From: Nannocystis sp.
GTDB lineage: Bacteria > Myxococcota_A > Polyangia > Nannocystales > Nannocystaceae
Assembly (NCBI RefSeq): GCF_016714285.1
Contig: NZ_JADJNN010000008.1
Span: 4,669 to 68,668 of the forward strand
DNA length: 64,000 nt
Reading direction: 5' to 3'
Part shown: positions 6,197-59,189 of the stretch, piece after piece
Numbering within the stretch: position 1 is the stretch's first letter
Layout of the letters: the number at the start of each line of letters is the position of its first letter
Position numbers and translations under genes: made by a program
The notes under the pieces: model-generated
What the model was told of the DNA's origin: nothing
Database searches by the model: none
The model's input: only the letters and a program-made list of their open reading frames with translations

Positions 6197-6441
6197 GACG
6201 GCCTCCTTCTCGGCGGAGCGATGGATGAATGGACAGAGATAAAGCGCGCAGAGGGAGTTGAACCCTCGCTTCCTCCGTGGCAGGGAGGCGTGCGGCCACC
6301 AGCACCTTGCACGCAGATCGATGGATCGACGGGTGTGGCCGCGACGGGCCAATGCCGCGGCGAATCAGCGCCCACGGATATGTGGGTACTTGCGGAGCTG
6401 CGACGGCGGGCCGCGGTCCGACGGAGGGCCGATCGAGCGGG

Positions 6442-9367: not shown

Positions 9368-9901
9368 ATGGCGAGGTCGGTGCATATTCTGTCGTTGCTG
9401 GACGACAGCGACATCGAGTGGTTGGTGCAGGTCGGGCTGCGCCTGAGCGTGCCGCCGGTGGCTCCGCTGGTGGAGGAGGGGCTGCGCACGCCGTTCCTCT
9501 ACATCATTCTTTCGGGGGCCTTTCTCGTGACGCAGAGCGCGACGGGGGCGACGGAGCGGTCGCTGTCGGTGATCCAGCGCGGGGAGCTGGTCGGGGAGCT
9601 GTCGTATCTCGACGCGCGGCCGCCGTCGGCGACGGTGCGGGCGGCCCGGGCCTCGCAGGTGCTGGCGGTGGCGCGCTCGGAGGTCGCGCGCAGGCTGCAG
9701 ACGGACGTCGGGTTCGCGGCCCGCTTCTACCGGGCGCTGGGGATCACGGTGGCGATGCGGCTGCGGGCCCTGACGCGCGGCGAGCCGGAGGACGAGCCGG
9801 ACCTCGAGCAGCTCGGGCTGGTGACGGTGGACGAGCGGCGCTTCGAGGCGATCATGCGCCGGCTGGAGGGGCTCCCAGGCGACGCAGACGCAGCGAGTTG
9901 A
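9368..9901 (+). CDS. cyclic nucleotide-binding domain protein
   Basis: 177-aa ORF starting at ATG 9368. cNMP-binding fold pattern ([12 protein letters not shown]...[23 protein letters not shown]). High GC3. Confidence 0.7.
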
Positions 9902-12323
9902 GCACGACGGTGAGGCTGCTGAGGGCCATCGCCAGGGCGGCGAGGGCGGGGTGGAGCGCGCGCAGGAAGCCCGGGGCGGCGGCGATCGGGTAGAGGGCGC
10001 CGGCGGCCACCGGGATCAGGACGAGGTTGTAGATCGAGGCCCACAGCAGGTTCTGGCGGACCACGGCGAGGGTGCGGCGCGACAGCTCCAGGGCCTCGGG
10101 CAGGCCGCGGAGGTCGCTGCGCATGAGGGTGAGGTCGGCGGCGTGGATCGCGACCTCGGCGCCGCTGCCCATGGCGACGCCGAGGTCGGCCTGGGCCAGG
10201 GCGGGGCCGTCGTTGATGCCGTCGCCGACCATGCCGACCGGGCCGTCCCGCTGGAGCGTGACGATCGCGGCGGCCTTGTCGGCCGGGAGCACGCCGGCGA
10301 TCACGTCGGCGGCGGGGATGCCGGCCTGGGCGGCGATGGCGATGGCGACCTGGCGGTGGTCGCCGGTCAGCATGAGCACGCGCAGGCCGGCGCGGCGCAG
10401 GGTGGCGACGGCCTCGGCGGCCTCGGGGCGCAGGGCGTCGGCCAGGGCGAGCAGGCCGAGCAGGGCGCCGTCGCGGGCCAGCCAGACGAGGGTCTGCGGG
10501 GCCTGCAGGGCGGCGGCGGGGAGGGCGAGGAGGGCGGGTGTCGCTTGGGACAGGTGGGTGGCGGTGGCGGTGGATGTCCCGGCGGACAGGTCGGGTGTCG
10601 CTTGGGACAGGTGGGTGGCGGCTGTCCCGGGGGACAGGTTTGATGTCTCTTGGGACAGGTTGATCGTGGCGCTGGCGGTGGCTGTCCCGGCGGACAGGTC
10701 GGCGGCGAGGGCGGTGAGGGCGGTGGTGTCGACGTGGTTGCTGGTGAGCCAGCGTTCGCTGCCGATGAGGAGGTCGTGGCCGCCGACGCGGGTGCGCAGG
10801 CCGTGGCCGCCGACGGCGCGGAGGTTGTCGCTGGCGGGGAGTTCGAGGCCGGCGTCGCGGGCGGCGGTGACGATCGCGCGGGCGAGCGGGTGCTCGCTGC
10901 GCTGCTCGGCGGCGGCGGCGAGGCGGAGGAGCTCGCGCGGGTCGACGCCGGGGGCGGGCGCGAGGGCGCTGAGCGTGGGGCGGCCGCGGGTGAGGGTGCC
11001 GGTCTTGTCGAGGACGAGGGTGCGCAGGGCCTGGGCTCGCTCGAGCGCGGCCATGTTCTTGAACAGGACGCCGCGGCGGGCGGCGGCGCCGGTGCCGACG
11101 ACGATCGCGGTCGGGGTGGCGAGGCCGAGGGCGCAGGGGCAGGCGATCACGAGGACGGCGACGGCGCGCAGGAGGGCCGCGCCGGCGCCCTGGTCGGCGA
11201 GCAGCCACCACAGCGTGAAGGTGAGGCCGGCGAGGGCGAGGACGACGGGGACGAACACGGCGGCGACGCGGTCGACCAGGCGCTGCACGGGGGCCTTGCT
11301 GGCCTGGGCGGCGCGGACGAGGCGGACGATCTGGGCCAGGGCCGTGGCTGCGCCGACGCGGGTGGCCTCGATCTCGAGGGCGCCGTCGCCGTTGACGGTG
11401 GCGCCGGTGACGGGGTCGCCGGTGGTCTTGCCGACGGGGCGGCTCTCGCCGGTCAGCATGCTCTCGTCGACCTCGGAGGCGCCGCTGCGGACGACGCCGT
11501 CGACCGGGATCGCGGCGCCAGGGGCGACCAACACGGTGTCGCGGACCCGGACCTCTGCGGCGGGGATCTCGAGCTCGTGGCCGTCGCGGCGGACCCGGGC
11601 GGTGGCGGGGCGGAGCGCGAGCAGGGCCCGGATCGCGGCGCCGGCCTGGCCGCGGGCGCGGGTCTCGAGCAGGCGGCCGACGCCCACGAGGGTGATGATC
11701 GCGGCGGAGGTCTCGAAGTGGACGTGGTGGCCGAGAGCGTGGCTGCCGAGGGACTCGGCGACGACCACCGGGACGCTGGCGAGGAAGGCCACGCCGGCGC
11801 CGAGGCTGATCAGGACGTCCATGGTGGCGGCGCGGGCCTTGAGCGCGTGCCAGGCCCCGCGCAGGTGCGGCGCGCCGGTGTAGGCGAGGACCGGCAGGGC
11901 GAGCGCCAGCAGGAGCCACAGGAGCCACGGGGCGGCCGTCCAGGCGCCGAGCAGGTCGAAGTCGCGGCCCATACCGAGGACCATCAGCGGGGCGGTGCAG
12001 GCGATCCCGACGAGGACGCGGCGGCGCTGACTGGCGAGCTCGGCGGCGCGGGCCAGCAGCTCGGCATCGTCGCCGCCCTCGCTGCCCGCGATCACGCTGT
12101 AGCCGGCGGCCTCGACGGCGGCGACCAGCTCACCGCGAGTGACTGTGCCGGGGGTCGCCAGGTGCACGCGGGCGGTCTCACTGGCGAAGTTGACGGCGGC
12201 CGCGGCGACGCCGGGGACGCTGGTGAGCGCGCGTTCGACGGTGTTCGCACAGTTGGCGCAGCGCAGCCCGGCGATCGCCAGCTCGAACTCGGGGTCGTCG
12301 GCGGCGGGCACGGAGCCGAGCAT
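9852..12323 (-). CDS. heavy-metal-translocating P-type ATPase (CopA-like) with N-terminal HMA domain; carries an in-frame low-complexity insertion in the N-domain
   Basis: 823-aa ORF. CxxC metal-binding motif ([12 protein letters not shown]), CPC motif ([11 protein letters not shown]), DKTGTLT phosphorylation motif, [10 protein letters not shown] hinge. A 70-80 aa Ser/Thr/Ala-rich insertion (LSQET/LSAGT repeats) is encoded by the GGACAGGT repeat array at 10540-10720. Confidence 0.9.
10540..10720. repeat. intragenic array of GGGACAGGT / TGTCCCGGCGGACAGG repeat units inside the P-type ATPase gene
   Basis: Direct repeats of gtcgcttgggacaggtgggtggcgg (x2), tgtcccggcggacaggtcgg (x2) and related units read directly in sequence. 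Confidence 0.85.
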
Positions 12324-19649: not shown

Positions 19650-20564
19650 GGGACGATAACCTGGGTGGGAGCGCGGGCGGTGGGGCACGGGCCGGGGTGG
19701 GGCCGGCCCTCCGGCGAGCGACGCCTCCGCTAAAGGCAAGGCGGTCGGCGTCGCCGAGAGCCGGCCCCACCCCGGCCCTGAATGGGGTGACGTCGCTGCG
19801 CGGTATGTAGCAGCGAATGCGACGGGTTGCACTCGATATGTCGCATTGCTGTGAGCCTCGAAGCGCTCACCGTTCAATGCACTCAAATGGGTCCGGGGCA
19901 GTCCTGCGGAGCGTCCGTGTCGGGCGCGCACATTGCTGTCGGGCCCATGTCGCCGCAACAATCGTCGTGGCTGCAGAGGATGCAACTCCATTCGAAGCAG
20001 GCCGTGATGCGTCCAATGTGAATGAGTTGTGGTCGCCGTGTGGCACCTTTCGTTCCTGTCCGAAGAGGCAGGTTGCGAGTCTCAGGCCGGGGCGGGCCTC
20101 GGCGACGCCGTGATGCATGCAATGTGAATGAGTTGTGGTCGCCGTGTGGCACCTTTCGTTCCTGTCCGAAGAGGCAGGTTACGAGTCTCAGGGCCGGGGC
20201 GGGTCCGGCCTCGGCGACGCCGATCGTACCGTCCTTTAGCGGAGGCTTCGCTTGCCGGGGGGCCGACGGGGGGGTCGACCGAGTCAAGGGGCGCCGTGGA
20301 GAACGAAGTTCTCCAAAGGCGAACCCGCCCTGTCTGAGGGCGAACCCCCCGTCGGACATCCGGCTTCTCGAGGATACGCGCGCGCCCGCCGGACCCGCCC
20401 CGGTCCGTGCCACGATACTCGCGGAGTCCTGCTGTGATAGCGAGGATACTCGCGGAGTCCTGCTGTGATAGCCCGGTCCGTGCCACGATACTCGCGGAGT
20501 CCTGCTGTGATAGGCCGGTCCGTGCCTTGATATTCGCGGACCTGCGATAGCGAGGGGTCGGCCT
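19650..20564. repeat. repeat-rich noncoding region: two ~105-bp direct repeats (20005-20109, 20110-20221), 3-4 tandem ~42/27-bp units (20399-20555), flanking inverted 14-bp repeat (cctccgctaaagg / cctttagcggagg at ~19727 and ~20243)
   Basis: Read directly. Locally lower GC, with no ORF showing credible codon bias. Confidence 0.8.
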
Positions 20565-25972: not shown

Positions 25973-26839
25973 GTGCGCCGCCTCGCCTGTCTCTGGCTCG
26001 CCTCCTCGCTGATCGCGGTGGGCGGGCCGGCGCGCCCGCTGCACGCGGCGCCGGTCAGCGAGCGCGCGGCCGATGTGCCGCTCGCGGTCGAGGGACCTGC
26101 GCCAAAGGACAGGTCGGGAGAGGCTGGCGCGGAGGACAGGTCGGCTGGCTCCGGGGACAGGTCGGGGTCAGCTGGCCCGGAGGACAGGTCGGGAGAGGCT
26201 GGCCCGGAGGACAGGTCGGGGTCGGCTGGCCCGGAGGACAGGTCGGCTGGCTCTGGGGACAGGTCGACGCCGCGGTCGGCGGCCGAGGGGATGCCCGCGG
26301 CGCCGCGGGTGCCGGCGCCGACGGCTGCGATCAAGGATGGGGGTCCAGAGCTGGTCACGGTGGCGGTCGGGCTCGGGCCCTCGGCGCCGGGCTCGAAGGC
26401 GGAGACGGCGGTGGTCGACGCGCTCGAGCGCGCCGCCCGGGCCTCGCAGGCGCCGCCGACGCTGGTTCGCCGCCTGCGGGCCGGGGCGGGCGAGGGGCGG
26501 GCGATCTGCCGCGAGCGTCGCGACGACCTGGTGCTGCTGCTCGAGTACATGCCCGATCGACCCGAGCCGGTGTTGGTGCCCCGGGACTGCCGCCTCGACC
26601 GTGAGCTGGCGCTCCGGGGGAAGGAGGCCGCAGGTGAGCCGGCCCTCATCGGCGTACTGTGGGAGGAACATCGGGCGCTCGTCCGCGGCGGGGCCCGCGA
26701 GCGCAAGGTGAGGATCAGCCGCAAGGTGAAGACGGGCCTCATCGCTGGCGGGGCGATCGTGGTCGTCGGGCTGGCGATCGTGCTGGTTGTGGTCAACAGC
26801 TTGCGCCGCGAGACGGTCGTGCTCACAGTGGGGCCATGA
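25973..26839 (+). CDS. secreted/membrane-anchored protein with (G/A)E(A/D)GPEDRSG tandem repeats
   Basis: GTG 25973. Signal peptide LACLWLASSLIAVG. Seven ~8-9-aa repeats encoded by the GAGGACAGGTCGG tandem array at 26095-26270. C-terminal TM helix. Stop overlaps the next ATG (ATGA). Confidence 0.6.
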   Translation: MRRLACLWLASSLIAVGGPARPLHAAPVSERAADVPLAVEGPAPKDRSGEAGAEDRSAGSGDRSGSAGPEDRSGEAGPEDRSGSAGPEDRSAGSGDRSTPRSAAEGMPAAPRVPAPTAAIKDGGPELVTVAVGLGPSAPGSKAETAVVDALERAARASQAPPTLVRRLRAGAGEGRAICRERRDDLVLLLEYMPDRPEPVLVPRDCRLDRELALRGKEAAGEPALIGVLWEEHRALVRGGARERKVRISRKVKTGLIAGGAIVVVGLAIVLVVVNSLRRETVVLTVGP

Positions 26840-42637: not shown

Positions 42638-44497
42638 ATGCACACACGCAACACGGCAGCGATCATCGGGATCGGGATGATGTGGGTCGCGCTCGTCGCT
42701 GGCTGTTACACCGGGGCGGTGGCGCAGGAGGCGAGCGAGGGCGGTGAGATCGAGGGCAGCGGGGGCAGCGGCGGCAGCGGGGGCGCGGCGGGTGAGAGCA
42801 GCGGCGAGGTCGGCGAGAGCAGCGGCGGTGAGTCCGAGGGGCGCATGCTGGACGCGGGCAACCAGGCGCCGGAGATCGTCGACCCGGGGCCGCAGAGCGT
42901 CGCAGAGGATGAGTCGCTGGCGCTGGCGCTGACGGTCCACGATCCCGACGGCGATCCGCTGCGGGTGTGGGCGCTGGGGCTGCCGCCCGGGGCCAGCTGG
43001 GACGAGCCGGCGCGGGTGCTGCGGTTCCGGCCGGACTTCATCCAGGGCGGGCAGCAATGGACGGTGACGATCGTCGCCGACGACGGGGCGCGCCGCAGCA
43101 CGCTCGCGGTGGAGGTCGCGGCGAGCGACAGCATCCGTCCGCCCGAACCGGAGATCCTCGGGGTCGAGGAGCTCGACGGCTTCACTCGCATCACCCTGTC
43201 GCAGATCCCGGACGACTACCTGGCGAGCCCGGGCAACGCCGGCCAGGAGTTCGCTGCGTTCGTGATGGTGCCGGCGTTCATGGACGAGGCTGAGCGCTTC
43301 CCGGTGCGGATCGGGCTGCACGGGATCGGCACCGCGACGCCGCCGAGCAGCGGCAGCGCCAGCGAGTTTCGCATCGGCCCGCACGACCCGGACAACACCT
43401 ACTGGTGGGGCTACGACGCCGGCCTGCCGGACGCCGACCCGCTCGGCGTGGACGTGCCGGACTACACGCAGCGGCGGGTGATGCACCTGCTCGGCTGGGT
43501 GCTGGAGTCGTATCCGCAGGCCGACGCGGGGCGGGTGTACGTGGCCGGGAGCTCGATGGGCGGGGCCGGGGCGATGACGCTGGGGCTGTGGTACGCGCGG
43601 CACTTCGCGTACCTGAGCGCGCAGCTCGGGCAGTCGGTGCCGCGCAACCACCGGCCGTCCCGCGTGGCCCAGCTCGAGGGGCTGTGGGGTCCGAGCGACG
43701 CGCCGGTGTGGGACAGCCTCGACCTGACGTGGGTGCTGGCGACGTCGGCGGAGGCGCGCGAGCAGTACCTGTTCGTGCGGCACGGCAAGGACGACCCGAC
43801 GATCCACTTCGGGGCCGCGGTGCGGGCGAGCCCGCGGACCGGCGAGCGCTTCTACGACGCGCTGCAGGGGCTGGCGGTCGGGCACCTCGCGGTGTGGGAC
43901 GAGGGGGCGCACGGTCCGGCGGACCCGAAGCTCGGCGCGGGCTGGTGGGACGAGAGCTTCTCGCCGATCTACGACGGGACCAGCTTCCTGCGCAGCGACC
44001 TCGCGTTCCCGGCCTTCAGCCTGTCGTCGGCGGACGGCGATCCGGGCGACGGCGGCGGCAACGGCAAGCAGAGCTGGGACGTGAACGCCGGCTACGCGGG
44101 CGTGCTGGAGGTGGCGGGGGACACCGGCTGGAACGGCGAGATCGCGGGGGCGCTCAATCGTTTCTTGCGCTGGGACGCGACCGCGATCGTCGACACGCTC
44201 GACCGCTTCGCCGTGCCGCTGCACGTCCACGACGGCGACGGTGAGGATGCGCCGGCGGCCGGGTACCCGAGCCGTGGCGATCGCTTCGACGGCGAGCTGC
44301 CGGTGGTGGTCGACGTGACGCCGCGGCGAGTGCAGGCGTTTCGTCTGCGGCCGGGCGAGGTGGTGGCGTGGCGCTTCGGCGCGCAGTCGGGCGAGGCGAG
44401 CGCGAACGCGACGGGCGAGCTGACGATCCCGGGGCTCGAGCTGGGGCTCGACTGGCAGCTGCTCGAGCTGCGTCGGGTGGCGATCCTGGTGCGCTGA
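42638..44497 (+). CDS. secreted lipoprotein with alpha/beta-hydrolase (esterase/depolymerase-like) domain
   Basis: ATG 42638 gives MHTRNTAAIIGIGMMWVALVAGC (lipobox). Gly/Ser/Glu-rich linker. Nucleophile elbow GSSMGG (GxSxG) and a His near the C-terminus. Confidence 0.75.
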   Translation: MHTRNTAAIIGIGMMWVALVAGCYTGAVAQEASEGGEIEGSGGSGGSGGAAGESSGEVGESSGGESEGRMLDAGNQAPEIVDPGPQSVAEDESLALALTVHDPDGDPLRVWALGLPPGASWDEPARVLRFRPDFIQGGQQWTVTIVADDGARRSTLAVEVAASDSIRPPEPEILGVEELDGFTRITLSQIPDDYLASPGNAGQEFAAFVMVPAFMDEAERFPVRIGLHGIGTATPPSSGSASEFRIGPHDPDNTYWWGYDAGLPDADPLGVDVPDYTQRRVMHLLGWVLESYPQADAGRVYVAGSSMGGAGAMTLGLWYARHFAYLSAQLGQSVPRNHRPSRVAQLEGLWGPSDAPVWDSLDLTWVLATSAEAREQYLFVRHGKDDPTIHFGAAVRASPRTGERFYDALQGLAVGHLAVWDEGAHGPADPKLGAGWWDESFSPIYDGTSFLRSDLAFPAFSLSSADGDPGDGGGNGKQSWDVNAGYAGVLEVAGDTGWNGEIAGALNRFLRWDATAIVDTLDRFAVPLHVHDGDGEDAPAAGYPSRGDRFDGELPVVVDVTPRRVQAFRLRPGEVVAWRFGAQSGEASANATGELTIPGLELGLDWQLLELRRVAILVR

Positions 44498-44529
44498 GCG
44501 ACGGGTGAGGGCCGCGGGGGCGCTGCGGC

Positions 44530-45072
44530 TCAGGGCGCCGGCTGGCCGTCGCGGCGGGCCTCGCTGAGCAGGCGCTCGAGCAGCTGGATCTGCTGCTGTT
44601 GCATCTGCACGAGCTCGGACCACTGGCGCTCGCGCAGGAGGTCGAGCTTCTCGTGGAGGTAGCGGATCTCGAGCTCGGCCTTGAGGTTGACCTCGTAGTC
44701 GTGGGCGGCGTCGGCCCGGTCGCGGGCGGCCTGGCGGTTCTGCGACATGAGGATGACCGGGGCCTGGAGGGCGGCGAGCATCGACAGGGCGAGGTTTAGC
44801 AGGATGAAGGGGAAGGGGTCGAAGGCGCCGCGGCCGAGCGAGATGTTGAAGACGATCCACACGGCGAGCACGCCGAGGCAGATCAGGATGAAGGTCCACG
44901 AGCCGCCGAAGCTGGCGATGCGGTCGGCGATGCGCTCGCCGAAGGTGCGCTCGTCGTCGAGGGCCTGCTGAACGTCGCGGCTGATCGCCGTTCCGGCCCG
45001 CAGGGCCTCGACGACGCGGAGCTCCTGGGCGTCGAGTTCACGGGGGTCGCCGGTCGGCTCGGGGGGCTGCAT
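44530..45072 (-). CDS. DUF1003-family membrane protein
   Basis: 180 aa. Two TM helices (WTFILICLGVLAVWIVFNISLG, FPFILLNLALSMLAALQAPVILMSQNR), then a coiled-coil; matches the DUF1003 pattern from memory. Confidence 0.7.
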   Translation of the reverse strand: MQPPEPTGDPRELDAQELRVVEALRAGTAISRDVQQALDDERTFGERIADRIASFGGSWTFILICLGVLAVWIVFNISLGRGAFDPFPFILLNLALSMLAALQAPVILMSQNRQAARDRADAAHDYEVNLKAELEIRYLHEKLDLLRERQWSELVQMQQQQIQLLERLLSEARRDGQPAP

Positions 45073-45084
45073 GGCCTGGCGAGC

Positions 45085-46113
45085 CTACACCGGCGGTCTG
45101 CGGTTCAGGAGGTGGCGATCACGGCGAGGCCCAGGACGACAGGTAGGGGACGAAGGGAGCAGGCCGACGCGCACGAGCAGGGTCATGAGGGCGCGCAGGG
45201 TCAGGCTGCCGACCGCGAAGCTGGCGGCGAAGCCGAGGGCGTAGCTGGTCGGGGCGATGCTCGTGGCGCTGCCGTGCTGCCACAGGTCGAGCGACTCCTT
45301 GAGCGAGGCGCCGAGGATCGCGGGGATCGCGAGCAGGAAGGAGAAGCGGGCCGCGGGCAGGCGACCGAGGCCGAGGGCCATCGCCGCGGCCATGGTCGTG
45401 CCGCTGCGCGAGACGCCGGGGAGGATCGCGACCAGCTGGGCGAGGCCGATGACGAGGCCCTGCCACGGGCGCGGGGCCTCGAGGCTGGCGACGCTGTCGT
45501 CGCGCCGGTGCGAGAAGGCGAGCAGGGCGGCGGTGATGAGGAAGCCGCAGCCGATCCAGCGGGTGCTGGTCTCGGCGGCGAGGACGATCGCCATGGTGGT
45601 GTCGCTGAGCGCGAGGGCCAGCGGGAGGGTGCCGACGATCAGGGCGAACAGGAGGGCGCGGGCGGTGTTCAGCGGCGGGCCGACGCGCGCGGGGACCAGG
45701 TCGCGCGAGGGGCCAGGTGGGGGGCCAGGGTTAGCACCTGGCCCATCGGACAGGTCGTCGGCGAGCGCGGGGCCAGTGTGTGGGCCTGGCCGTGAACCTG
45801 CCCCATTGGACAGGTCGTCGGCGAGCGCGAGGGGGTCGCCGACGGGGGCTGTGGGGGTCCCGGTGTGGTGGACGATCGCGACCTGGCGCGGCTGGAACAC
45901 GGCGCGGGCGAGGGCGCCGAGGTCGTGGCGGTAGAACAGCAGGACGGCGACCAGGGTGCCGGCGTGGACGACGATGTTGAAGGTGTGGCCGCCGCTGGCC
46001 GCGTCGACGCCGAGCCAGGTCTGGGCCAGGGCGAGGTGGCCCGAGGAGGAGATCGGGAGGAACTCGGCGACGCCCTGGAGTGCGCCGAGGGCGAGGGCCA
46101 GCAGCGGGCCCAT
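45085..46113 (-). CDS. uppP: undecaprenyl-diphosphatase (UppP/BacA) carrying an ~80-aa in-frame low-complexity insertion
   Basis: ATG 46113 (MGPLLALALGALQGVAEFLPISSSGHL, the BacA N-terminal motif). Later BacA motifs (PGVSRSGTTM, FSFLLAIP). The insertion (QPRQVAIVHHTGTPTAPVGDPLALADDLS...GPPPGPSRDL) is encoded by GGACAGGTCGTCGGCGAGCGCG direct repeats at 45745-45835. Confidence 0.85.
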   Translation of the reverse strand: MGPLLALALGALQGVAEFLPISSSGHLALAQTWLGVDAASGGHTFNIVVHAGTLVAVLLFYRHDLGALARAVFQPRQVAIVHHTGTPTAPVGDPLALADDLSNGAGSRPGPHTGPALADDLSDGPGANPGPPPGPSRDLVPARVGPPLNTARALLFALIVGTLPLALALSDTTMAIVLAAETSTRWIGCGFLITAALLAFSHRRDDSVASLEAPRPWQGLVIGLAQLVAILPGVSRSGTTMAAAMALGLGRLPAARFSFLLAIPAILGASLKESLDLWQHGSATSIAPTSYALGFAASFAVGSLTLRALMTLLVRVGLLPSSPTCRPGPRRDRHLLNRRPPV

Positions 46114-46124
46114 GCCGGGGTCGC

Positions 46125-48041
46125 TCACGCATCCTCCGCGGGGGCCTCGTTGGCGGCGGAGCTGTCCTCCGGGACAGCCGGACGCGTGCTGTCCTCCGGG
46201 ACAGCCGCGGACGCGTGCTCGGCGGAGCTGTCCTCCGGGACAGCCGCGGACGCGTGCTCGGCGGAGCTGTCCTCCGGGACAGCCGCGGACGCGTGCTCGG
46301 CGGAGCTGTCCTCCGGGACAGCCGCGCGCGCGCGCTCGACGACGCCGCGCTCCCACAGCTGCTCGTCGATCGCGCGCATGAGGGCCGCGGTGCTGCGGCG
46401 CTCGTTGGCGCTGATGAAGTAGGTGTGGCGGTCGGCGTCGGCGCGGCGGTGGTTGAGCTCGTCGGGGCCCAGGCGGTCGATCTTGTTGTAGACCCACAGG
46501 CGGGGCACGGCGCCGGCACCGATCTCGCCGAGGATCGCCTCGACGGTGGCGCGCTGCTGGTCCTGGTCGGGGTCGCTGGCGTCGACGACGACGAGCAGGA
46601 GGTCGGCCTCGGCGACCTCCTCGAGGGTGGCGGAGAAGGCCTGGACGAGCGCGGGGGGGAGGTCGCGGATGAAGCCGACGGTGTCGAGGAGGACGACCTC
46701 GTAGTCCTTGGGGAAGCGGATCCTGCGGACGCTGGGGTCGAGGGTGGCGAACAGCTTGTCCTCGGCGACGACGGCGCTGTCGGTGACGGTGTTGAGCAGG
46801 CTGCTCTTGCCGGCGTTGGTGTAGCCGACGATCGCGACCACGGGCACGCCGGTGCGCCGACGCAGGGCCCGACGCTGGTCGCGGCGCTGCTTGAGCGCGA
46901 GCAGGCGGCGCTCGAGGTCGTGGATGCGCTCCTTGGCGCGGCGGCGGTCGATCTCGAGTTTGGTCTCGCCGGGGCCGCGACCACCGATGCCGCCGGCGAG
47001 CCGCGACATGGCGGTGCCGTGGCCGATCATCCGCGGCAGGAGGTAGCGCAGCTGGGCCAGCTCGACCTGCAGCTTGCCGTCGGCCGAGGTGGCGTGCTGG
47101 GCGAAGATGTCGAGGATGAGGGTGGTGCGGTCGATGACCTTGAGGTCGGTGCGCTCGCCGATCTCGCGGGCCTGCGAGGGGGTGAGGTCGGGGTCGCAGA
47201 TCAGGAGCTCGACGTCCTGGGCGAGGGCCCGCACGAGCACGTCGCGCAGCTTGCCCTGGCCGAAGAAGGTGCGCGGGTCGGGGCCGGGGCGGCGCTGGGT
47301 GGCGAGGTCGACTAAGTGGAGGCCGTCGGTGCGGCACAGCTCGCGCAGCTCCTGCTCGCGGGCGTGCAGCTCGGGGCCCTCGCCCTGGTGGATCATGAGG
47401 GCCATGGCGCGGGTGCCCTGCGACTCGGCGCGCGCGCCCGCGGTGGCGGCGACGAGGCCGGCCTCGAGGTCGCGGATGAAGCCGAGGAAGTCGGAGGGCA
47501 TGTCCGCGGCGGGCCGCATGCCGGTGGTGTGGCCGGGGTCGTCGTCGTCGCGGGCGAGCACGCCGAGCGGGACGCGCGGGAAGCCGCGCACGACGAAGAT
47601 GTCCTTTGAGCCAGGTTGTGGCGGGGCCAGGCTGGCGAGGTCGATCTGGACGCCGGCGGGGCCGGTGTGGATCGCGGCGAGGAGGTCGAGGCGCAGCTTG
47701 GCGAGGTCGGCGAGCTCCTCGCGGGTCGGCGGGTCGGGGACCAGGTGGGTGAGGACCAGCCGGACGCCGCGCAGGCGGCCGCCCTGGCCGCGCACGCGGG
47801 TGAACTCCGGGAGGGCGAGGCTGTGGGCGTCGCCGAGGATGACGCGCTGCACGCGGCCGCGGCGGTCGATGAAGAGGCCGAGCTGGCGGTTGAGCTGGTG
47901 CGAGAGCTCGAGCAGGTCGCGCGCGAGCACGGCCGAGATGACGCTCGTCGGCGGGACCTGGCGCGCGCCGAGCCGCTGCAGCGCGCGGGCCTGGCTGCTC
48001 TTGAGGTTCGCCGTGTCGCCGTGGACGATCGGGTCGCTCAC
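46125..48041 (-). CDS. hflX: GTPase HflX with N-terminal extension and C-terminal AAVPEDSSAEHAS tandem-repeat tail
   Basis: GTG 48041 overlaps the stop of the upstream gene (GTGA). HflX N-domain and G-domain motifs (GYTNAGKSSLLN, DTVGF, NKID). Five C-terminal 13-aa repeats encoded by 39-bp tandem repeats at 46160-46326. Confidence 0.9.
   Translation of the reverse strand: MSDPIVHGDTANLKSSQARALQRLGARQVPPTSVISAVLARDLLELSHQLNRQLGLFIDRRGRVQRVILGDAHSLALPEFTRVRGQGGRLRGVRLVLTHLVPDPPTREELADLAKLRLDLLAAIHTGPAGVQIDLASLAPPQPGSKDIFVVRGFPRVPLGVLARDDDDPGHTTGMRPAADMPSDFLGFIRDLEAGLVAATAGARAESQGTRAMALMIHQGEGPELHAREQELRELCRTDGLHLVDLATQRRPGPDPRTFFGQGKLRDVLVRALAQDVELLICDPDLTPSQAREIGERTDLKVIDRTTLILDIFAQHATSADGKLQVELAQLRYLLPRMIGHGTAMSRLAGGIGGRGPGETKLEIDRRRAKERIHDLERRLLALKQRRDQRRALRRRTGVPVVAIVGYTNAGKSSLLNTVTDSAVVAEDKLFATLDPSVRRIRFPKDYEVVLLDTVGFIRDLPPALVQAFSATLEEVAEADLLLVVVDASDPDQDQQRATVEAILGEIGAGAVPRLWVYNKIDRLGPDELNHRRADADRHTYFISANERRSTAALMRAIDEQLWERGVVERARAAVPEDSSAEHASAAVPEDSSAEHASAAVPEDSSAEHASAAVPEDSTRPAVPEDSSAANEAPAEDA
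46160..46326. repeat. five tandem ~39-bp repeats each containing the perfect palindrome GCTGTCC-TCCG-GGACAGC, inside the 3' end of hflX
   Basis: Read directly (gagctgtcctccgggacagccgcggacgcgtgctcggcg x5). Confidence 0.9.
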
Positions 48042-49996
48042 GAGGCGTCGCTGTCGCCGGTGTCAAGCACGCGCAGGGCCACGGCGAGGGCCTGCTGGGC
48101 GTGCAGCGCGGCCTCGCGGCGGCGGTGGAGCCCAGCCTCGGCGCGCTCGAGGTTGCCGGTCAGGTCGTCCTGGATCGCGACGAGCTCGCGGATCCTGGCG
48201 GCGGCCTCGTCGGCCTGGCTCTGGGCCTGGTCGGCGGCGATGTCGGCGGCCTGCTGGAGGCGCTGGATCTCGGCGCGGGCGTGGGCCTCGGCGGTGGCGA
48301 GGTTGTGGGTGAGGCGCTGGATCTCGGCGCGGGCGCTGTCCTCGGTGGCGGCCAGGCTCTGGGTGAGCTGGGAGATCTGGAGGCGGGCGTTCTCCTCGGT
48401 CTCGGCGAGCAGCTGGGACATGCGCTCGCGCTCGTGCTGGGCCTGCTGCTGGGCCGCGGTGAGCTGGCGCTGGGCCTGCTGCTGGGTGTCGGCGAGCTGG
48501 CGCTGGGCCTGCTGCTGGGTGTCGGCGAGCAGGTGCTGGGCTTGCTGCTGGGTGTCGGCGAGCTCCTTCTGCAGGCCGTCGACGGTGATGCGGTGCTCCT
48601 GCGTGAGCTCGTCGATCTCGGCCTGGTGCTGATCACCGAGCGAGGCGATGGCGGCGGCGCGCTCCCTGCGGGCGGTGGCGAGGCCGTCGGCGAGCTCCTG
48701 GCGGGCCAGCTCGAGCTGCTGGGCGAGGCTCGCGGCCTGTTCGCGGGTGTTCTCGAGGTCCTCGTGGATGCCGGCGACCTGCTCCGAGAGCGCCTGCACG
48801 CGGGCGGCGAGGCCGTCGCGCTCCTGCTCGAGCTCGGCGATCTGGCTGGCCTGCGTGGCGATGTGCTGGCGGGCCTCGGTGGCGGCGGCGCCGGCCTGCT
48901 GTTGGGTCTGGGCGAGCTGCTGCTGGACGCCGGCGAGCTGGGCCTCGGTGTCCTTGAGCTTCTTGAGGGTGACCTCGAGGCGGGTCTTGAGGCCCTCCTC
49001 GCGCTTGAGCAGCGTCTGCTTGTCGCGCTGGGCGGCCTCGGCGGTCTCGCGCGAGGAGAGGACCTGCTCCTGCGAGCTGACCAGCTGGGTCTCGAGCTCG
49101 CCGAGCTGGGCCTGGAGCTCGCGGTGGTGCTTCTTGGCGTCGAGGACGGCGCGCTCACGCAGCTCGAGCTCGTCCTTGAGGGCGAGGATCTCGCGGTTCT
49201 TGGCGTTGAGCTGCGACTTGAGCTGGAGCGCCTCGCGCTGGGCCTTGAAGCCGGCGCCGGACGACTCGCCGTCGCCGACGGCGAGCTCGGGGACGGGTCC
49301 GGAGATCCGGCTGGCGCCGGAGGCCTCGCTGACGACGCCGCTGCGCGAGCGGGCCGGCGGCTCGGCGCTGCGGCGCACGGCGACGGTATGATCGTCGTCG
49401 TCGCGGAGCTCACCCGTCTGGTTGCCGCTGGTGGCGGTCAAGTTGTTGAACTCGTCGGCGAACTCGCGTTCGAACTGCTGGTGCGGGGCGGGTGGCGGGG
49501 CTCGGATGCCGGAGGGCTCGCTGAGCTCGACGTCGAGGCGGGGGCGGGCGCGGGCCTCGGGGCGGGAGATCGGGCGCGGACTCGCGGGCGCAGCGGCGGC
49601 GGCCGGGGCGGCGCGGCCGGGCTCGCCGAGGTTCAAGTACGGGCGCACGGCGGCGAGCAGGCGATCGGCGTCGACCGGGAGGCGCAGGTACTGGTCGGCG
49701 TGGGTCTTGAGGTTGCGGTGCTGCTCGATGACATCGTCGCTGGCGTTGGACGAGTAGAGCACCAGCGGGATCTTGCGCGTGTCCTCGTTGCGGCGCAGGC
49801 GGTTGCACACCGAGAAGCCGGTGGTCAGCGGCAGCTCGGCGCGCAGGAGGATGATGTCCGGCGCGGCCTGGCGGGCGACGTTGACGGCCTCCGGTCCGTT
49901 CTCCGTGACCGTGAACTCGAACCCGTACGGCGCGAGGATGCTCTTGAGGGTGGCGGGAGTCTTGCCGTCAGCGTCGATGATCAGGGCAGAGAACAC
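48038..49996 (-). CDS. response-regulator receiver domain protein with long C-terminal coiled-coil (FrzS/AglZ-like architecture)
   Basis: GTG 49996 (VFSALIIDADGKTPATLKSILAPYGFEFTVTENGPEAVNVARQAAPDIILLRAELPLTTGF..., a CheY-like receiver). About 450 aa of heptad-rich Q/E/A/L/R coiled-coil with internal ADTQQQAQ(H/R)(L/Q)L repeats. The upstream part of the 760-aa track ORF is Arg/Pro-rich and was rejected. Confidence 0.75.
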   Translation of the reverse strand: MFSALIIDADGKTPATLKSILAPYGFEFTVTENGPEAVNVARQAAPDIILLRAELPLTTGFSVCNRLRRNEDTRKIPLVLYSSNASDDVIEQHRNLKTHADQYLRLPVDADRLLAAVRPYLNLGEPGRAAPAAAAAPASPRPISRPEARARPRLDVELSEPSGIRAPPPAPHQQFEREFADEFNNLTATSGNQTGELRDDDDHTVAVRRSAEPPARSRSGVVSEASGASRISGPVPELAVGDGESSGAGFKAQREALQLKSQLNAKNREILALKDELELRERAVLDAKKHHRELQAQLGELETQLVSSQEQVLSSRETAEAAQRDKQTLLKREEGLKTRLEVTLKKLKDTEAQLAGVQQQLAQTQQQAGAAATEARQHIATQASQIAELEQERDGLAARVQALSEQVAGIHEDLENTREQAASLAQQLELARQELADGLATARRERAAAIASLGDQHQAEIDELTQEHRITVDGLQKELADTQQQAQHLLADTQQQAQRQLADTQQQAQRQLTAAQQQAQHERERMSQLLAETEENARLQISQLTQSLAATEDSARAEIQRLTHNLATAEAHARAEIQRLQQAADIAADQAQSQADEAAARIRELVAIQDDLTGNLERAEAGLHRRREAALHAQQALAVALRVLDTGDSDAS

Positions 49997-55017: not shown

Positions 55018-55289
<272 letters not shown>

Positions 55290-55305
<16 letters not shown>

Positions 55306-55370
55306 GGCTGTCCGAGGGGACAGGTTGCGGCCGGCGTACTTGATGTGAGGCTGTCCGAGCGGACAGGTCA
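55290..55370. repeat. two direct copies of TGATGTGAGGCTGTCCGAG(G/C)GGACAGGT, each with a CTGTCC-N4-GGACAG palindrome, between convergent genes whose stop codons lie in or next to the copies
   Basis: Read directly. Candidate bidirectional terminator or repeat element. Confidence 0.8.
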
Positions 55371-56270
55371 GCGGCGACGACGGAGCAGGAGGGCGAGCGG
55401 GAGCAGGAGGGCGAGCGAGGCGGGCTCGCCGGGGCTGCCGTTGCAGCCGCAGCCGCTGCTGCGCTCGGGGTCGGTGTTGATGCAGTCGCAGTCGCTGCAG
55501 TCGGGCGGGCGCAGGTCGAGGCCCGAGGCCTGCTCGAGCCAGCACAGGCCGCCGATCGGCGCGGCGTAGAAGCCGCCCTTGCCGCAGGTGTAGCCGCGCG
55601 AGGTGACGCCGGCGAGCACGTACTCGCCGCTGGCGAGCTTGGCGAAGGCGGGGCCGCCGGAGTCGCCCTGGCACGAGTCGAGGCCCATGCCGCCGGCCTG
55701 GAACTCGAGGCCGGAGCCGCTGAACTTGGTGATCGGGACGTCGACCTGGCGCTTGATGCCGGTGATGTCGCCCTCGTTGAGGCCGTAGCCGACGACGGTG
55801 ACCTTGTTGTCGACGGCCATGAGCTCGTCCCACTCGTCCTGGTCGGCGATCGGGCGCGGGAACTCGAGGATGTCGGACTGCGGCTTGGTGAGCACGAGGA
55901 AGCCGTAGTCGTGGATGTCCTCCTTGCAGCTCTTCGCGCCGCAGAACTCGGGGTCGAAGCCGATGGCGGCGACCTTGTAGACCGGGACCGGGAAGTTGAC
56001 GTCGTCGCCGCGGCGGACGGTGATGCTGCTGAGCGAGGGCTCGGACTCGAGGCAGTGGGCGGCGGTGAGGACGATGGTCGGGCTGACGAGGGTGCCGGTG
56101 CACAGCGAGCTGCCGAGGGTGATGGCGACGACCGCCGGCCAGGCGCCCGGCTCGACGACCTGGCCGCCGTAGATCGGGACGGGCGGCGGTGGGACGGCGG
56201 TGAGGGTGCCCGTGGGGGTGGCGAGGGCGATCACGGCGGCGAGCCCGGAGAGCAGCATGGCGGCCAGCAT
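55368..56270 (-). CDS. trypsin-like S1 serine protease with MYXO-CTERM sorting signal
   Basis: Catalytic triad context TAAHC, D, GDSGGP. C-terminus GCGCNGSPGEPASLALLLPLALLLRRRR (MYXO-CTERM). Confidence 0.85.
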   Translation of the reverse strand: MLAAMLLSGLAAVIALATPTGTLTAVPPPPVPIYGGQVVEPGAWPAVVAITLGSSLCTGTLVSPTIVLTAAHCLESEPSLSSITVRRGDDVNFPVPVYKVAAIGFDPEFCGAKSCKEDIHDYGFLVLTKPQSDILEFPRPIADQDEWDELMAVDNKVTVVGYGLNEGDITGIKRQVDVPITKFSGSGLEFQAGGMGLDSCQGDSGGPAFAKLASGEYVLAGVTSRGYTCGKGGFYAAPIGGLCWLEQASGLDLRPPDCSDCDCINTDPERSSGCGCNGSPGEPASLALLLPLALLLRRRR

Positions 56271-56315: not shown

Positions 56316-57698
56316 TCACAGGCTGGCGGCGGGGAGGTCGACGATCGGGCCGAGGTCGAGGTCGGCGAGCGGGGCGTCGACGAGGGACGGGTCGCCGACG
56401 ACGACGATCTGGAGGTCGTCGAGGGCGAAGTGGCTGCGCAGCGAGCGGGTGACCGCGGCGGCGTCGCAGGGTGGGGGGCGAGCGTTCGGGAGCGCGTGCC
56501 AGTGGGCGCGGGCGAGGCTCTGCAGCTGGTCGGCGTCGGTCTGGCGGCGGTACAGCTGCTCCAGGGCCTCGTGGACGCAGACGCGGGCGACGAGCCCGGG
56601 AGCGAGGCCCTGGCGGCGCAGGCGGGCGAGGGTGTCGGCGATGACGCCGAGGCTGCGGCCGACGGCGGCGGCGTCGACCTGGGTGACGATGCGGAGCAGG
56701 CCCGGGCCGCGGGCGGGCTCGCGGCTCACTTCGACGCCGTAGGTCGCGGCCATGTCGTCGCGCAGGCGCTCGCCGAGGGCGCTCTGCACGATGTCGGCGG
56801 CGACCTGGGTGGCGAGGTCGTCCTCGGCGATCGCGGCGGCGCGGCCGAGCACGACGACGGCCTGGGCGAGGCCCGGGCGGGCGATGCGGTGGATGGCGCG
56901 GCGCGGGGCGGGCGCGAGGGCGGGGAGCCCCTGCGGGTCGGCGGGGCCGCTCCAGCCGGCGAGTCTGGGGGCGGCGGCGGCGACGAGGGCCTGCGGGTCG
57001 GCGTCGCCGGCGACGACGATCGTCAGCGCGGCGGGGCCGAGGCTGCGCTGGCCGTGCTCGCGGACCTGCTCCAAGGACCATGTCCCGGAGGACAGCTCGC
57101 TGGTCGCGTGGGGGTGGCCGGGCGGGAGGCTGACGCGGCGCAGGCCGGCGAGCGCGAGGGTTGTTGGGTCGTCGCGGGCGCGGGCCCGGGCGGCGGCGAG
57201 TTCGGCGGTGATGTCGGCCAACTCGGCGGCCAGCTCGGCGGCGTCGCCGGGCTGGTCGAGCGGGCGGCGGATCGCAGCGAGGAGGGCGCGCAGCGCCGCG
57301 GGGGCGTGCTCGGCGGGGACCTCGGTGGCGAGCAGGGCGCCCGAGCTGCTGATGTGCAGCTGCGGCGCGCCGCCGAGGTCGGCGAGGGCGGCGGCGAGGC
57401 TGCCCTCGCGCTCGTCGTGGCCGCGCAGGAGGCCGAGCAGGAGGGCGCTGAGGCCCGGGCGATCGGGCGGGTCGCTGGCGTGGCCGAGGCGGAGCGACAG
57501 GCCGAGGGCGACGCTGCGCGGGCCGGCGCCGGGGCGCGTGATCGGGGTGAAGTGCAGCGGCACGTCGGCGACGACGAGGCGACGGGTGGCGGGCGCGGGC
57601 GGGAGCGCGGGCGCGGGCGGGGCCGGCGGCGGCGTGCGCCGCCAGACCGAGCAGGCGAGGGTGGCGGCGGCGAGGGTGAGGACGAGGGCGCGAGACAT
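56316..57698 (-). CDS. M16-family peptidase-like lipoprotein (non-catalytic/C-terminal-type subunit)
   Basis: ATG 57698; lipobox LAC. M16 C-terminal-domain-like sequence, no HxxEH. 460 aa. Paired with the upstream M16 gene. Confidence 0.75.
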   Translation of the reverse strand: MSRALVLTLAAATLACSVWRRTPPPAPPAPALPPAPATRRLVVADVPLHFTPITRPGAGPRSVALGLSLRLGHASDPPDRPGLSALLLGLLRGHDEREGSLAAALADLGGAPQLHISSSGALLATEVPAEHAPAALRALLAAIRRPLDQPGDAAELAAELADITAELAAARARARDDPTTLALAGLRRVSLPPGHPHATSELSSGTWSLEQVREHGQRSLGPAALTIVVAGDADPQALVAAAAPRLAGWSGPADPQGLPALAPAPRRAIHRIARPGLAQAVVVLGRAAAIAEDDLATQVAADIVQSALGERLRDDMAATYGVEVSREPARGPGLLRIVTQVDAAAVGRSLGVIADTLARLRRQGLAPGLVARVCVHEALEQLYRRQTDADQLQSLARAHWHALPNARPPPCDAAAVTRSLRSHFALDDLQIVVVGDPSLVDAPLADLDLGPIVDLPAASL

Positions 57699-57848
57699 GG
57701 CGCGGGGGACAGGTGCGAGGAGACAGGTGCGAAGGGACAGGTTGGAAGGGACAGGTGGGATGGCCGCGGGGACAGGTGCGAAGGGACAGGTGGGGATGGC
57801 CGAAGGGACAGGTGGGAGGGGACCGGTGGGGATGGCCGAAGGGACAGC
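57699..57848. repeat. intergenic tandem array of eight degenerate 14-22-bp units built on GGGACAGGTG (…GGACAGGTGCGAAG / GGACAGGTTGGAAG / GGACAGGTGGGGATGGCCGAAG…)
   Basis: Read directly between the two M16 peptidase genes. All copies are on the + strand. Confidence 0.9.
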
Positions 57849-59189
57849 TCAGGTGGGTGGGGTGGCGAGGATGATGGCGCGGCGCGGGGCGGCGAGGAGG
57901 GTCCTGGCGGCGGCGGCGACGTCGGCGGGGGTGACGGCGAGCCACTGGGCGAGGTCGTGCTCGAGGCGGTCGGGGTCGCCGAATGCGGCGGCGTAGCCAG
58001 ACAGGAGGCTGGCGCGGGTGAGCAGGTCCTGGGGGGCGCGGCGCAGGCGCTGGGCGAGGCGCAGGCGGGCGCGGCGGAGCTCGGGCTCGGCGAGCTCGCC
58101 GGCGGCGACGCGGGCGAGCACGCCGTCGATCGCGGCGAGCAGGCGGGCCCCGTCGCTGCCGGGCGGGCCGATCAGCTCGATGACGGCGACCGACTGCTGC
58201 GGCTGGCTGAACTGCTCGGCGCCCAGGGCGGCGACGAGGGCGGCGTCGGGGCCGGCGAGGCGGCGGAAGGCGCCGGCGTGGAGGGCCGCGAACAGGACGT
58301 CGAGGGCGGCGTCGCCGTCGGCGTGCAGGCCCGGGCTGGCCCAGCCGCACAGGGCGCTCGGCGGGCCGCCGGTGGCGACGCGCTCGTGCTGCGGGCCGTC
58401 GGCGGGGAGCGGCGGGAGCGGGCGCGGGCGCCTGTCCCGGGGGACAGGTGAGCCGGGGATGCTGGCGAAGTAGCGGTCGATCTGGGCGCGGGTGTCTTGC
58501 GGGAGGTCGCCGACGATCGTGAGGGTGGCGTTGCTCGGGGTGTAGTGGGCGGCGAGGAAGGCGTCGACGTCGGCGGGGCGGATCGCGGCGATCGCCGCGT
58601 GCGGGCCGATGACGGTGTGGTGGTAGGGGTGCTCGGGCGGGAAGAGGCGGGCGAACAGGCGCTCGATGCGGGCGCCGCGGGGGTCGGTCTCGCGTCGCTG
58701 GCGGCGCTCCTGGGCGACGATCGCCTGCACCGAGGCGAGGGTGTGGGCGCCGGTGCTGCCGCGCAGGTAGCCCATGCGGTCGGCCTCGAGCCACAGCACG
58801 GTGGCGAGGCCGGCCTGCGGGGCGAGGGTGTAGTACTCGCTGCTGTGGAGGTCGGTCTCGGCGTTGTCGTGGTGGATGAAGGCGCGGGCGCGGGCGCGTT
58901 CGCGGGCCTCGGCGTCGATGTGGCGCGAGCCCGCGAACATGAGGTGCTCGACGACGTGGGCGAGGCCGCGGCGCTGCGGCGGATCGTCGACGGCGCCGAC
59001 GTGGTAGCGCAGGTGCACGGCGACGAGCGGGAGCCGGGCGTCGCGGCGGAGGATGACCTCGAGGCCGTTGGCGAGGTGGTAGTGCGCGTCGCCGGGGGCG
59101 CGGGCGGAGCTCGGGGTCGCGGGGGCGAGGTCCGGTGCCGCGGGCGCGAGGGCCAGCCAGGCGGGCAGCAGGGCGGCGAGGATGCGCAC
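57849..59189 (-). CDS. M16-family zinc peptidase (pitrilysin-like, HxxEH motif)
   Basis: GTG 59189 (VRILAALLPAWLALAPAAP, a signal peptide). Inverted zinc-binding motif HVVEHLMFAGS. 446 aa. Confidence 0.8.
   Translation of the reverse strand: MRILAALLPAWLALAPAAPDLAPATPSSARAPGDAHYHLANGLEVILRRDARLPLVAVHLRYHVGAVDDPPQRRGLAHVVEHLMFAGSRHIDAEARERARARAFIHHDNAETDLHSSEYYTLAPQAGLATVLWLEADRMGYLRGSTGAHTLASVQAIVAQERRQRRETDPRGARIERLFARLFPPEHPYHHTVIGPHAAIAAIRPADVDAFLAAHYTPSNATLTIVGDLPQDTRAQIDRYFASIPGSPVPRDRRPRPLPPLPADGPQHERVATGGPPSALCGWASPGLHADGDAALDVLFAALHAGAFRRLAGPDAALVAALGAEQFSQPQQSVAVIELIGPPGSDGARLLAAIDGVLARVAAGELAEPELRRARLRLAQRLRRAPQDLLTRASLLSGYAAAFGDPDRLEHDLAQWLAVTPADVAAAARTLLAAPRRAIILATPPT

Follow-up and report, generated by a model that had tools for sequence, protein, structure and literature searches.

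The hflX gene of a Nannocystis strain ends in a short tandem array that is, with good probability, a coding-region minisatellite: a variable number of tandem repeats (VNTR) locus whose 39-bp, 13-codon unit is organized around one TGTCC-N4-GGACA palindrome, and which varies in frame, probably by slippage or unequal recombination. The array lies in a 64,000-nucleotide stretch of contig NZ_JADJNN010000008.1 (assembly GCF_016714285.1), which was analyzed as a whole and is called the window below. It is neither a terminator, nor an RNA element, nor an on/off switch. The hflX array itself is a further member of the familiar class of coding VNTRs, and the palindrome on which it is built, found genus-wide, looks like an undescribed variant of the highly iterated palindromes.

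Structure of the array at the 3' end of hflX

A strong tandem array lies within 46154-46338, and Tandem Repeats Finder (TRF) reports a row at 46188-46338 with a period of 39 bp, 3.9 copies, 97% matches and a score of 281. The palindrome GCTGTCC-TCCG-GGACAGC has exactly five matches in it (Table 1). Perfect periodicity holds for 139 bp, that is 3.56 units (46188-46326), which in the best register gives three perfect 39-bp units. The copy with the lowest coordinates is a 27-bp variant which, compared to the full unit, carries a 10-bp and a 2-bp deletion; jointly these restore the frame, and EHASA becomes STRP. A previous examination of the letters alone (the sequence-only reading) had described five perfect 39-bp repeats, each with an embedded palindrome of 7-bp arms. 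This observation was right in part: a strong array and five exact palindrome copies are present, but the count of perfect units was wrong, with only 3.56 of them plus the 27-bp variant, and the exact 39-mer that was quoted occurs only twice (46225 and 46264). The units abut head to tail with high identity, as in the class of coding-region VNTRs or minisatellites. A CRISPR-like array (clustered regularly interspaced short palindromic repeats) was considered and ruled out, as the units are head to tail without spacers and lie within a conserved open reading frame (ORF).

The repetitive tail of HflX

Pfam domains (GTP-bdg_N, GTP-bdg_M and MMR_HSR1) identify the ORF that carries the array as HflX, and its best homologues are HflX proteins from Nannocystis and other Nannocystaceae. 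The array is in frame, within the last 66 codons, and ends 33 nt before the stop codon. Its minus-strand translation, (AAVPEDSSAEHAS)x3, AAVPEDSTRP, AVPEDSSAANEAPAEDA*, agrees with the repeat peptide and the repetitive C-terminal tail that had been proposed from the letters. The folded part of the protein ends near residue 566 (LWERG), and residues 567-638 form a variable acidic tail. An AlphaFold2 model based on 47 homologues places the end of the last helix at residue 564, and gives residues 573-638 a pLDDT (predicted local distance difference test) below 50 and no secondary structure; the repeat tail is predicted to be disordered and to lie beyond the conserved fold.

Tails of this kind differ widely among relatives. 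The segment that follows the conserved LWERG is 5 to 121 aa long in 106 HflX homologues (median 37), Asp and Glu make up 21-43% of the tails in the closest 20 listed homologues and in P0072, and several homologue tails have private repeats of their own. The peptide A(A/V)PED(M/S)S recurs in several lineages (P0001, P0002, P0005, P0008 and P0014), and in the tails of other lineages there are PEDMSE repeats, encoded by a sister palindrome, GGACATGTCC, to which we return below. Literature searches for repetitive HflX tails found nothing, and a look-up of the exact HflX of the window, and of a 100%-identical ATPase (P0121), found neither on record.

At the other end of the protein, an extension of about 229 residues (residues 1-229; 47355-48041) precedes GTP-bdg_N. 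Nannocystaceae homologues (580-650 aa) conserve this N-terminal extension, which is predicted to be folded, with a block pLDDT of about 70-90 and dips near residues 74-90 and 161-180.

Copy number among close relatives

The number of palindrome cores in the hflX array is five in the window, three in L001, two in both L002 and L124, and none in P0003. Over 7718 aligned bases, L001, a metagenome-assembled genome (MAG) of Nannocystis sp., shares 99.1% identity with the window, and no difference between the two exceeds the one in the array, an indel of 66 bp (39+27). For L002 the identity to the window is about 93%, and L124 is an independent metagenome contig with the same tail allele; both cores of this allele carry a private loop substitution (CGGA to CCGA), together with two unit substitutions. 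A metagenome scan with the 3' junction of the array retrieved only one further contig, which carries the 2-core allele. P0003 shares 91% protein identity with the HflX of the window and has a tail without the repeat; more distant HflX proteins also lack the array. The reading frame and the stop codon are the same in every allele observed.

The expectation that array length varies is thus borne out at 99.1% and about 93% identity, and the near-identity of the units, from which a recent expansion had been read, does reflect recent change. When orthologue C-termini were compared, as the sequence-only reading had suggested, tail array length was neither invariant nor conserved in distant relatives.

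The hflX-uppP junction

The stop codon of hflX overlaps the start codon of uppP by 4 nt (GTGA or ATGA) in the window and in five related loci (L001, L002, L121, L122 and L123). The overlapping start is the conserved one, because an internal ATG is CTG in L122. The operon layout is unchanged in relatives with zero to three cores, and, according to the ORF list, no stop codon interrupts any of the three minus-strand frames within the array.

This arrangement bears on two functions that had been suggested for the array. The first, a contingency-like behavior, was not borne out: with unit lengths of 39 and 27 bp, both divisible by 3, the gain or loss of copies lengthens or shortens the tail and cannot switch the gene on or off, and all alleles are in frame. 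A phase switch is therefore ruled out. The second was that of an mRNA structure, or a terminator, separating hflX from uppP. The array is internal to the ORF, whose stop overlaps the uppP start in the five related loci as well; a consensus scan of 44400-48400 found no terminator-like or promoter-like sites, and the hairpins of the array are followed by UCCGCC, with no U-tract. These observations rule out an intrinsic terminator or attenuator. The RNA fold of the array is no better than that of shuffled sequences (z = -1.45), nor are the folds of single units as RNA (z = -1.07 and -0.48), and DNA folds give z = -1.34 and -0.62; the minimum-energy fold of a single unit in mRNA sense does not contain the palindrome, and Rfam gives no match at the array. 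A structured RNA element is ruled out by the fold scores and the lack of an Rfam match. On the whole, the interpretation first given to the array held for the tail, its recent change and its variability, and failed for perfection, contingency and termination.

The palindrome is dispersed in the window

The core of the hflX palindrome recurs well outside the array. The window has a G+C content of 74%. With up to three mismatches, the 18-mer has 15 sites, 10 of them outside the hflX array, against 0.28 expected, which excludes chance. The form CTGTCC-N4-GGACAG occurs 12 times (7 outside hflX) against 0.00-0.01 expected under Markov nulls of order 1 to 5, an excess of about 1000-fold. It is the commonest 6-bp-stem hairpin of the window, with a loop that is always 4 nt long, and no other stem exceeds 5 copies. 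Stem sequence is conserved, and loops and flanks are without consensus. The full 39-bp unit is not dispersed: elsewhere in the window only a 16-18-bp core recurs.

The sister palindrome GGACATGTCC, 10 bp long and without spacer, has half-sites in common with the hflX palindrome and is present 7 times in the window (at 22735, 27906, 35709, 50329, 52554, 62659 and 63867) against 0.06-0.97 expected under the same Markov nulls. Its copies include some at plausible start codons, some that code for EDMSE and others that lie between genes. As a start-codon context it showed no consistent pattern, since besides the copies at plausible starts (22739 and 35713) others are internal or intergenic, and this candidate was dropped.

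Table 1. Positions of the hflX array, its host genes and the other palindrome copies in the window
Feature	Coordinates	Strand	Remarks
hflX coding sequence	46125..48041	-	638 aa; TGA stop 46125-46127; from the ORF list, Pfam GTP-bdg_N/GTP-bdg_M/MMR_HSR1 and Nannocystis HflX homologues
In-frame minisatellite	46161..46326	-	27-bp variant 46161-46187; 39-bp units 46188-46226, 46227-46265 and 46266-46304; 22-bp partial unit 46305-46326; codes for HflX residues 573-627
Palindrome cores 1-5	46161-46178, 46188-46205, 46227-46244, 46266-46283, 46305-46322	.	identical, exact matches
uppP (BacA)	45085..46128	-	Pfam BacA; GTG start 46126-46128 overlaps the hflX stop (GTGA); 3' end seemingly frameshifted relative to relatives
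60-bp duplication in uppP	45735..45830	-	ALADDLS(N/D)G... twice; each copy with ACCTGTCC-N4-GGnCAGGT; hypervariable between close relatives
Palindrome array in Cu-ATPase gene	10531..10702	-	gene 9852-12323; other frame than in hflX, DLSAGT/NLSPGT/HLSQAT
27-bp-period array	26106..26266	+	GPEDRSG(E/S)A; in ORF 25973-26839, within the linker that follows its signal peptide; frame shared with hflX (PED[SR])
Two CTGTCC-N4-GGACAG hairpins	55308..55366	.	starts 55308 and 55351, 43 bp apart; spacer between convergent genes
Intergenic array	57700..57850	.	flanked by two M16-peptidase genes; some 10 GGACAGGTG half-sites in direct orientation; periods 14, 22 and 36, not multiples of 3
Single palindrome copy	58432..58447	.	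inside M16-peptidase gene, read PVPRDR
Further single copy	1543-1558		abuts start codon
Further single copy	14565-14580		
Further single copy	57079-57096		one mismatch, read ELSSGT

Behavior of the palindrome at other loci

Several copies of the palindrome are themselves part of arrays. Inside ORFs, the periods of these arrays (39, 27, 21, 48 and 60) are all divisible by three; those of the intergenic array are not. In the loop of the Cu-ATPase, orthologues from outside Nannocystis have a 56-aa segment without insert, and every Nannocystis orthologue has 1 to 9 repeats of the D(L/M)S type, in differing numbers and with differing spacers. In the corresponding linker, orthologues of ORF 25973-26839 differ in how many copies of VPEDRS, PEDMSE, VPADS or DMSxGT they carry. 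The uppP duplication differs among the window, L001 and L002, and is reduced to one copy in more distant relatives. Throughout the genus, then, the motif stays in the same loops and linkers, and its copy number and spacers change, in arrays whose units share descent.

Irregularities were noted in uppP itself. At its 3' end (45085-45170) the window has two 1-bp gaps relative to L001 (about 45141 and 45158), and its UppP C-terminus reads ...LLPSSPTCRPGPRRDRHLLNRRPPV against a conserved ...LLPFVPYLL..., which suggests a frameshift or a sequencing error. In L001 (5170-5240) the gene call splits uppP into two ORFs (127 and 229 aa), with a net 14-bp deficit in the repeat-bearing loop beside a C-run; the split is probably an assembly error, or possibly a pseudogene.

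Taxonomic range, reading frames and codons

The taxonomic range of the palindrome was estimated by scanning 185,579 species, each represented by one genome, and the following figures rest on the 118 loci listed. Nannocystis or Nannocystaceae account for 18 of these loci. Beyond the seed, they hold 25 extra 5+4+5 copies in 133 kb, against 3 in 738 kb for all other loci, and 1 in 273 kb for those other loci with a G+C content above 65%. By the density of extra copies as well as by the share of loci, the palindrome is restricted to a lineage among the loci listed, as is the cyanobacterial repeat HIP1 (highly iterated palindrome 1). In the sequences sampled, its density is about one per 5-9 kb.

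The palindrome is read in several frames. Among 42 copies, about 14 read LSxGT, about 14 VPxD(S/R) (including the five hflX cores), 3 CPxGQ, and 10-12 or so are intergenic or ambiguous; these numbers come from inspection of the listing by eye, and a script with a strict cut-off called 12 of the 42 coding. By the same tally about 30 of the 42 copies lie in ORFs, a location at odds with the extragenic one of repetitive extragenic palindromic sequences (REPs), of bacterial interspersed mosaic elements (BIMEs) and of the REP doublets forming hairpins (REPINs).

Codon use at the motif departs strongly from that of the host genes. In the Cu-ATPase inserts of four lineages, Ser is encoded by TCC in 27 of 27 cases (9 of 110 elsewhere in those genes), Thr by ACA in 26 of 29 (4 of 147 elsewhere) and Gly by GGG in 19 of 19 (20 of 287 elsewhere), with a Fisher p of about 1e-20 for each, although the units share descent and the counts are not independent. 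GACA is invariant in 26 of 26 units, and adjacent third positions vary. In hflX, GCT is found in every core stem, and it represents 13 of the 659 Ala codons in eight ORFs of the window. Judged from these sequences, the palindrome is a nucleotide-level motif, apparently held by the rare codons ACA, GGG, TCC and GCT. A protein-level motif as common cause of the copies is ruled out by the diversity of frames, the intergenic copies and the fixation of codons.

Other features of the window

Tandem repeats are dense in the window, with 37 TRF rows of score at least 80 in 64 kb, or roughly 25 distinct arrays; many of these are inside ORFs and have periods that are multiples of three. Upstream of hflX, a gene for a response-regulator/coiled-coil protein contains a 33-bp in-frame repeat (48436-48564; LADTQQQAQRQ, 3.9 copies), in which the window and L002 are one unit (33 bp) apart. 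A non-coding repeat cluster is present at 20001-20540 (a 106-bp unit x1.9, then 31- and 42-bp units), with no ORF of high G+C at third codon positions; the 106-bp unit holds an imperfect CCTGTCC...GGCAGG palindrome.

We also considered the word GGACAGGT as a polar motif similar to FtsK orienting polar sequences (KOPS) or Chi. Its strand split is 30:3, but Markov simulations already give about 4:1. GC skew is very strong, and positive in every 4-kb block of 1-64000 (+0.12 to +0.26), whatever the gene orientation, and accounts for the strand bias of G-rich words; given this skew and the simulations, the bias of GGACAGGT is compositional, and the candidate was rejected. Finally, a small ORF at 55018-55305 encodes an extremely acidic 95-aa protein with long poly-Asp runs and adjoins the gene of a trypsin-like protease (55368-56270), and two tRNA genes are on the minus strand at 1872-1945 and 6243-6314 (Rfam RF00005, 67 and 48.9 bits).

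Comparison with known repeat systems

The hflX array resembles the coding-region VNTRs of bacterial proteins in its head-to-tail, near-identical units of a multiple of three, in the low-complexity peptide they encode, and in its variation between strains at 99% identity. It differs from them in that it is found on a housekeeping ribosome GTPase rather than on a surface protein, and in that its unit is built on a palindrome dispersed in the genome. Mycobacterial interspersed repetitive unit (MIRU) VNTRs are interspersed 40-100-bp repeats at operon junctions, with a -4 coupling to the downstream start (PMC12548453). The hflX array likewise repeats a unit of about 40 bp in tandem where two genes of an operon meet, in an ORF that ends in a 4-nt overlap, with a strain-variable copy number; unlike MIRU-VNTRs, it belongs to hflX itself and not to a separate small ORF, and the 39-bp unit as a whole is not dispersed.

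For the palindrome, judged by analogy, the nearest parallel is cyanobacterial HIP1. HIP1 (GCGATCGC; PMC5861425, PMC4390886) is reported to exceed expectation 15- to 300-fold and to be conserved both inside ORFs and in the DNA that separates them (PMC5861425), with no evident role as peptide or RNA. The Nannocystis palindrome is similar in being short, lineage-specific, far over-represented (about 1000-fold in one window) and present in several ORF frames as well as between ORFs. It is unlike HIP1 in its bipartite structure (5-6 bp arms and an N4 spacer) with a zero-spacer sister, in its lower frequency, and in its propensity for tandem arrays and disordered-protein segments.

Other palindromic families are more distant. 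Rickettsia palindromic elements (RPEs) are about 150 bp long and are found in frame in unrelated genes, with one conserved peptide per family (PMC10969869). The Nannocystis repeat is also in frame in unrelated conserved proteins (HflX, UppP, Cu-ATPase and M16 peptidase), to which it adds peptide where this is tolerated; in contrast to RPEs, the shared core is only 16-18 bp long, it is read AVPEDS, DLSxGT or PEDRS depending on the locus, and it grows via local tandem duplication. We found no evidence of its transposition. With REPs, BIMEs and REPINs it has in common a short G+C-rich hairpin motif in many copies, sometimes clustered or between convergent genes, but most Nannocystis copies are intragenic, the arms are only 5-7 bp long and the loop is free. 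Literature searches for this palindrome, or for a myxobacterial repeat family of this kind, gave nothing relevant.

Origin of the hflX array and alternative explanations

If the array is a coding-region minisatellite, its 39-bp units would be gained and lost through replication slippage or through unequal recombination between identical copies, probably with the assistance of hairpin formation at the palindrome. Variants that leave the frame would be removed: because all three minus-strand frames are open, ribosomes translating a frame-shifted hflX would continue into uppP, and the coupling of stop and start would be lost. It is plausibly because of this constraint that only frame-preserving variants are seen, including the compensated 10+2-bp deletion. 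Variation of the length of the tail would itself be nearly neutral, the disordered acidic tail being probably of little consequence for HflX.

Several points weigh against this account. Slippage and frame selection are what we infer, not what was observed. Neutrality of the tail is assumed, and A(A/V)PED(M/S)S recurs in lineages that are only 82-85% identical, so that the tail or its DNA could have a function. The best fold of a unit as sense mRNA leaves the palindrome unused, so that any slippage assisted by hairpins would have to take place on DNA. Copy numbers were taken from assemblies (MAGs, metagenome contigs and the window), in which short arrays can be collapsed or mis-sized, and assembly quality is a concern for the window and L001, which both have probable small indel errors in uppP.

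The alternative that survives best, possible although on balance doubtful, is that the array is selected as nucleic acid. As has been proposed for HIP1 in cyanobacteria, TGTCC-N4-GGACA would be a genus-specific signal for a putative DNA- or RNA-binding factor, with five sites accumulated in an ORF stretch where the peptide is unconstrained, and translation would be a by-product. This explanation is compatible with the description of the array as a VNTR, and adds a reason for its existence. It is favored by a stem that is conserved while loops and flanks vary freely, by the excess over the nulls of all five orders, by the constant 4-nt loop of the commonest hairpin, and by the concentration of listed loci and extra copies in Nannocystis and Nannocystaceae. 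Codon use that is overridden at the motif (TCC, ACA and GGG in the Cu-ATPase inserts, GCT in every hflX core), and the invariant GACA amid variable third positions, point in the same direction. So do the permanence of the motif at the same loop or linker genus-wide despite the turnover of copy number, and the presence of the sister palindrome instead in the HflX tails of other lineages. On the other side, no reader protein, methylation or phenotype is known; the shared descent of array units deprives the codon counts of independence; biased repair, or a self-propagating hairpin-prone sequence, could yield the same pattern without function; and the motif is wholly missing from some related HflX tails (P0003).

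The palindrome could be maintained either as a selected genomic signal or as a locally propagating hairpin-prone sequence. As a tentative proposal, which goes beyond the array, we suggest that TGTCC-N4-GGACA and GGACATGTCC may form a Nannocystis-specific system of highly iterated palindromes, preserved as a nucleotide sequence through selection or a dedicated reader (a DNA-binding or DNA-modifying protein, or a hairpin-specific enzyme). Its copies would number in the order of a thousand per genome, by extrapolation from one per 5-9 kb; they would survive in genes only where the peptide is unconstrained, and seed in-frame minisatellites in disordered loops, linkers and tails, of which the HflX tail would be one footprint.

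It is unlikely that the exact length of the array and its differences from relatives are assembly or sequencing artefacts around a real repeat. All compared sequences are indeed assemblies, arrays of 80-170 bp are near short-read length, the uppP insert of L001 is frameshifted, and the two 1-bp gaps of the window shift the 3' end of uppP. Yet the differences in the array are whole units (39+27 = 66 bp; 105 bp) and not single-base errors, the 27-bp variant is internally consistent and in frame, and the 2-core allele was recovered independently in two metagenomes with identical private substitutions.

Still less credence can be given to selection at the protein level, by which AVPEDSS would be a short linear motif for binding or phosphorylation whose copies confer multivalency on the HflX tail. 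In its favor are the recurrence of A(A/V)PED(M/S)S in HflX tails of the lineages listed above, and that of VPEDRS, PEDMSE and VPADS in the linker of an unrelated secreted protein family. However, other copies of the DNA motif are translated as DLSxGT or CPxGQ, or lie between genes, where the periods of one array are not divisible by three; codon choice is fixed beyond the amino acid; a single peptide reader is unlikely to serve all the carriers, which include a membrane ATPase, a lipid phosphatase and a protein predicted to have a signal peptide; and copy number differs in close relatives, down to P0003 with no motif. Lastly, a role of the mRNA hairpins in setting the hflX:uppP expression ratio, whether by termination, attenuation or processing, to which five 7-bp G+C-rich stems near a gene junction and the two copies between convergent genes (55308 and 55351), where a terminator is expected, might point, is highly improbable given an array inside an ORF where ribosomes would unwind hairpins, a stop/start overlap that points to co-translation of hflX and uppP, and the absence of terminator-like sites or U-tract in 44400-48400, of excess folding, of an Rfam match and of any change in operon layout in relatives with zero to three copies.

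Significance for Nannocystis

As a coding-region minisatellite, the hflX array would be usable as a strain-typing marker for this Nannocystis lineage, and would exemplify how frame-preserving selection at an overlapping stop and start filters repeat variants. More broadly, a palindrome that appears fixed at the DNA level, genus-wide, repeatedly builds variable inserts in conserved proteins. Should it be a self-propagating hairpin-prone sequence, it would offer a route from DNA-level processes to disordered protein segments in large myxobacterial genomes. Should it be a selected signal, its bipartite site would be well suited to pull-down and methylome work, and Nannocystis would provide a second independent system, beside cyanobacterial HIP1, in which to ask what highly iterated palindromes are for.

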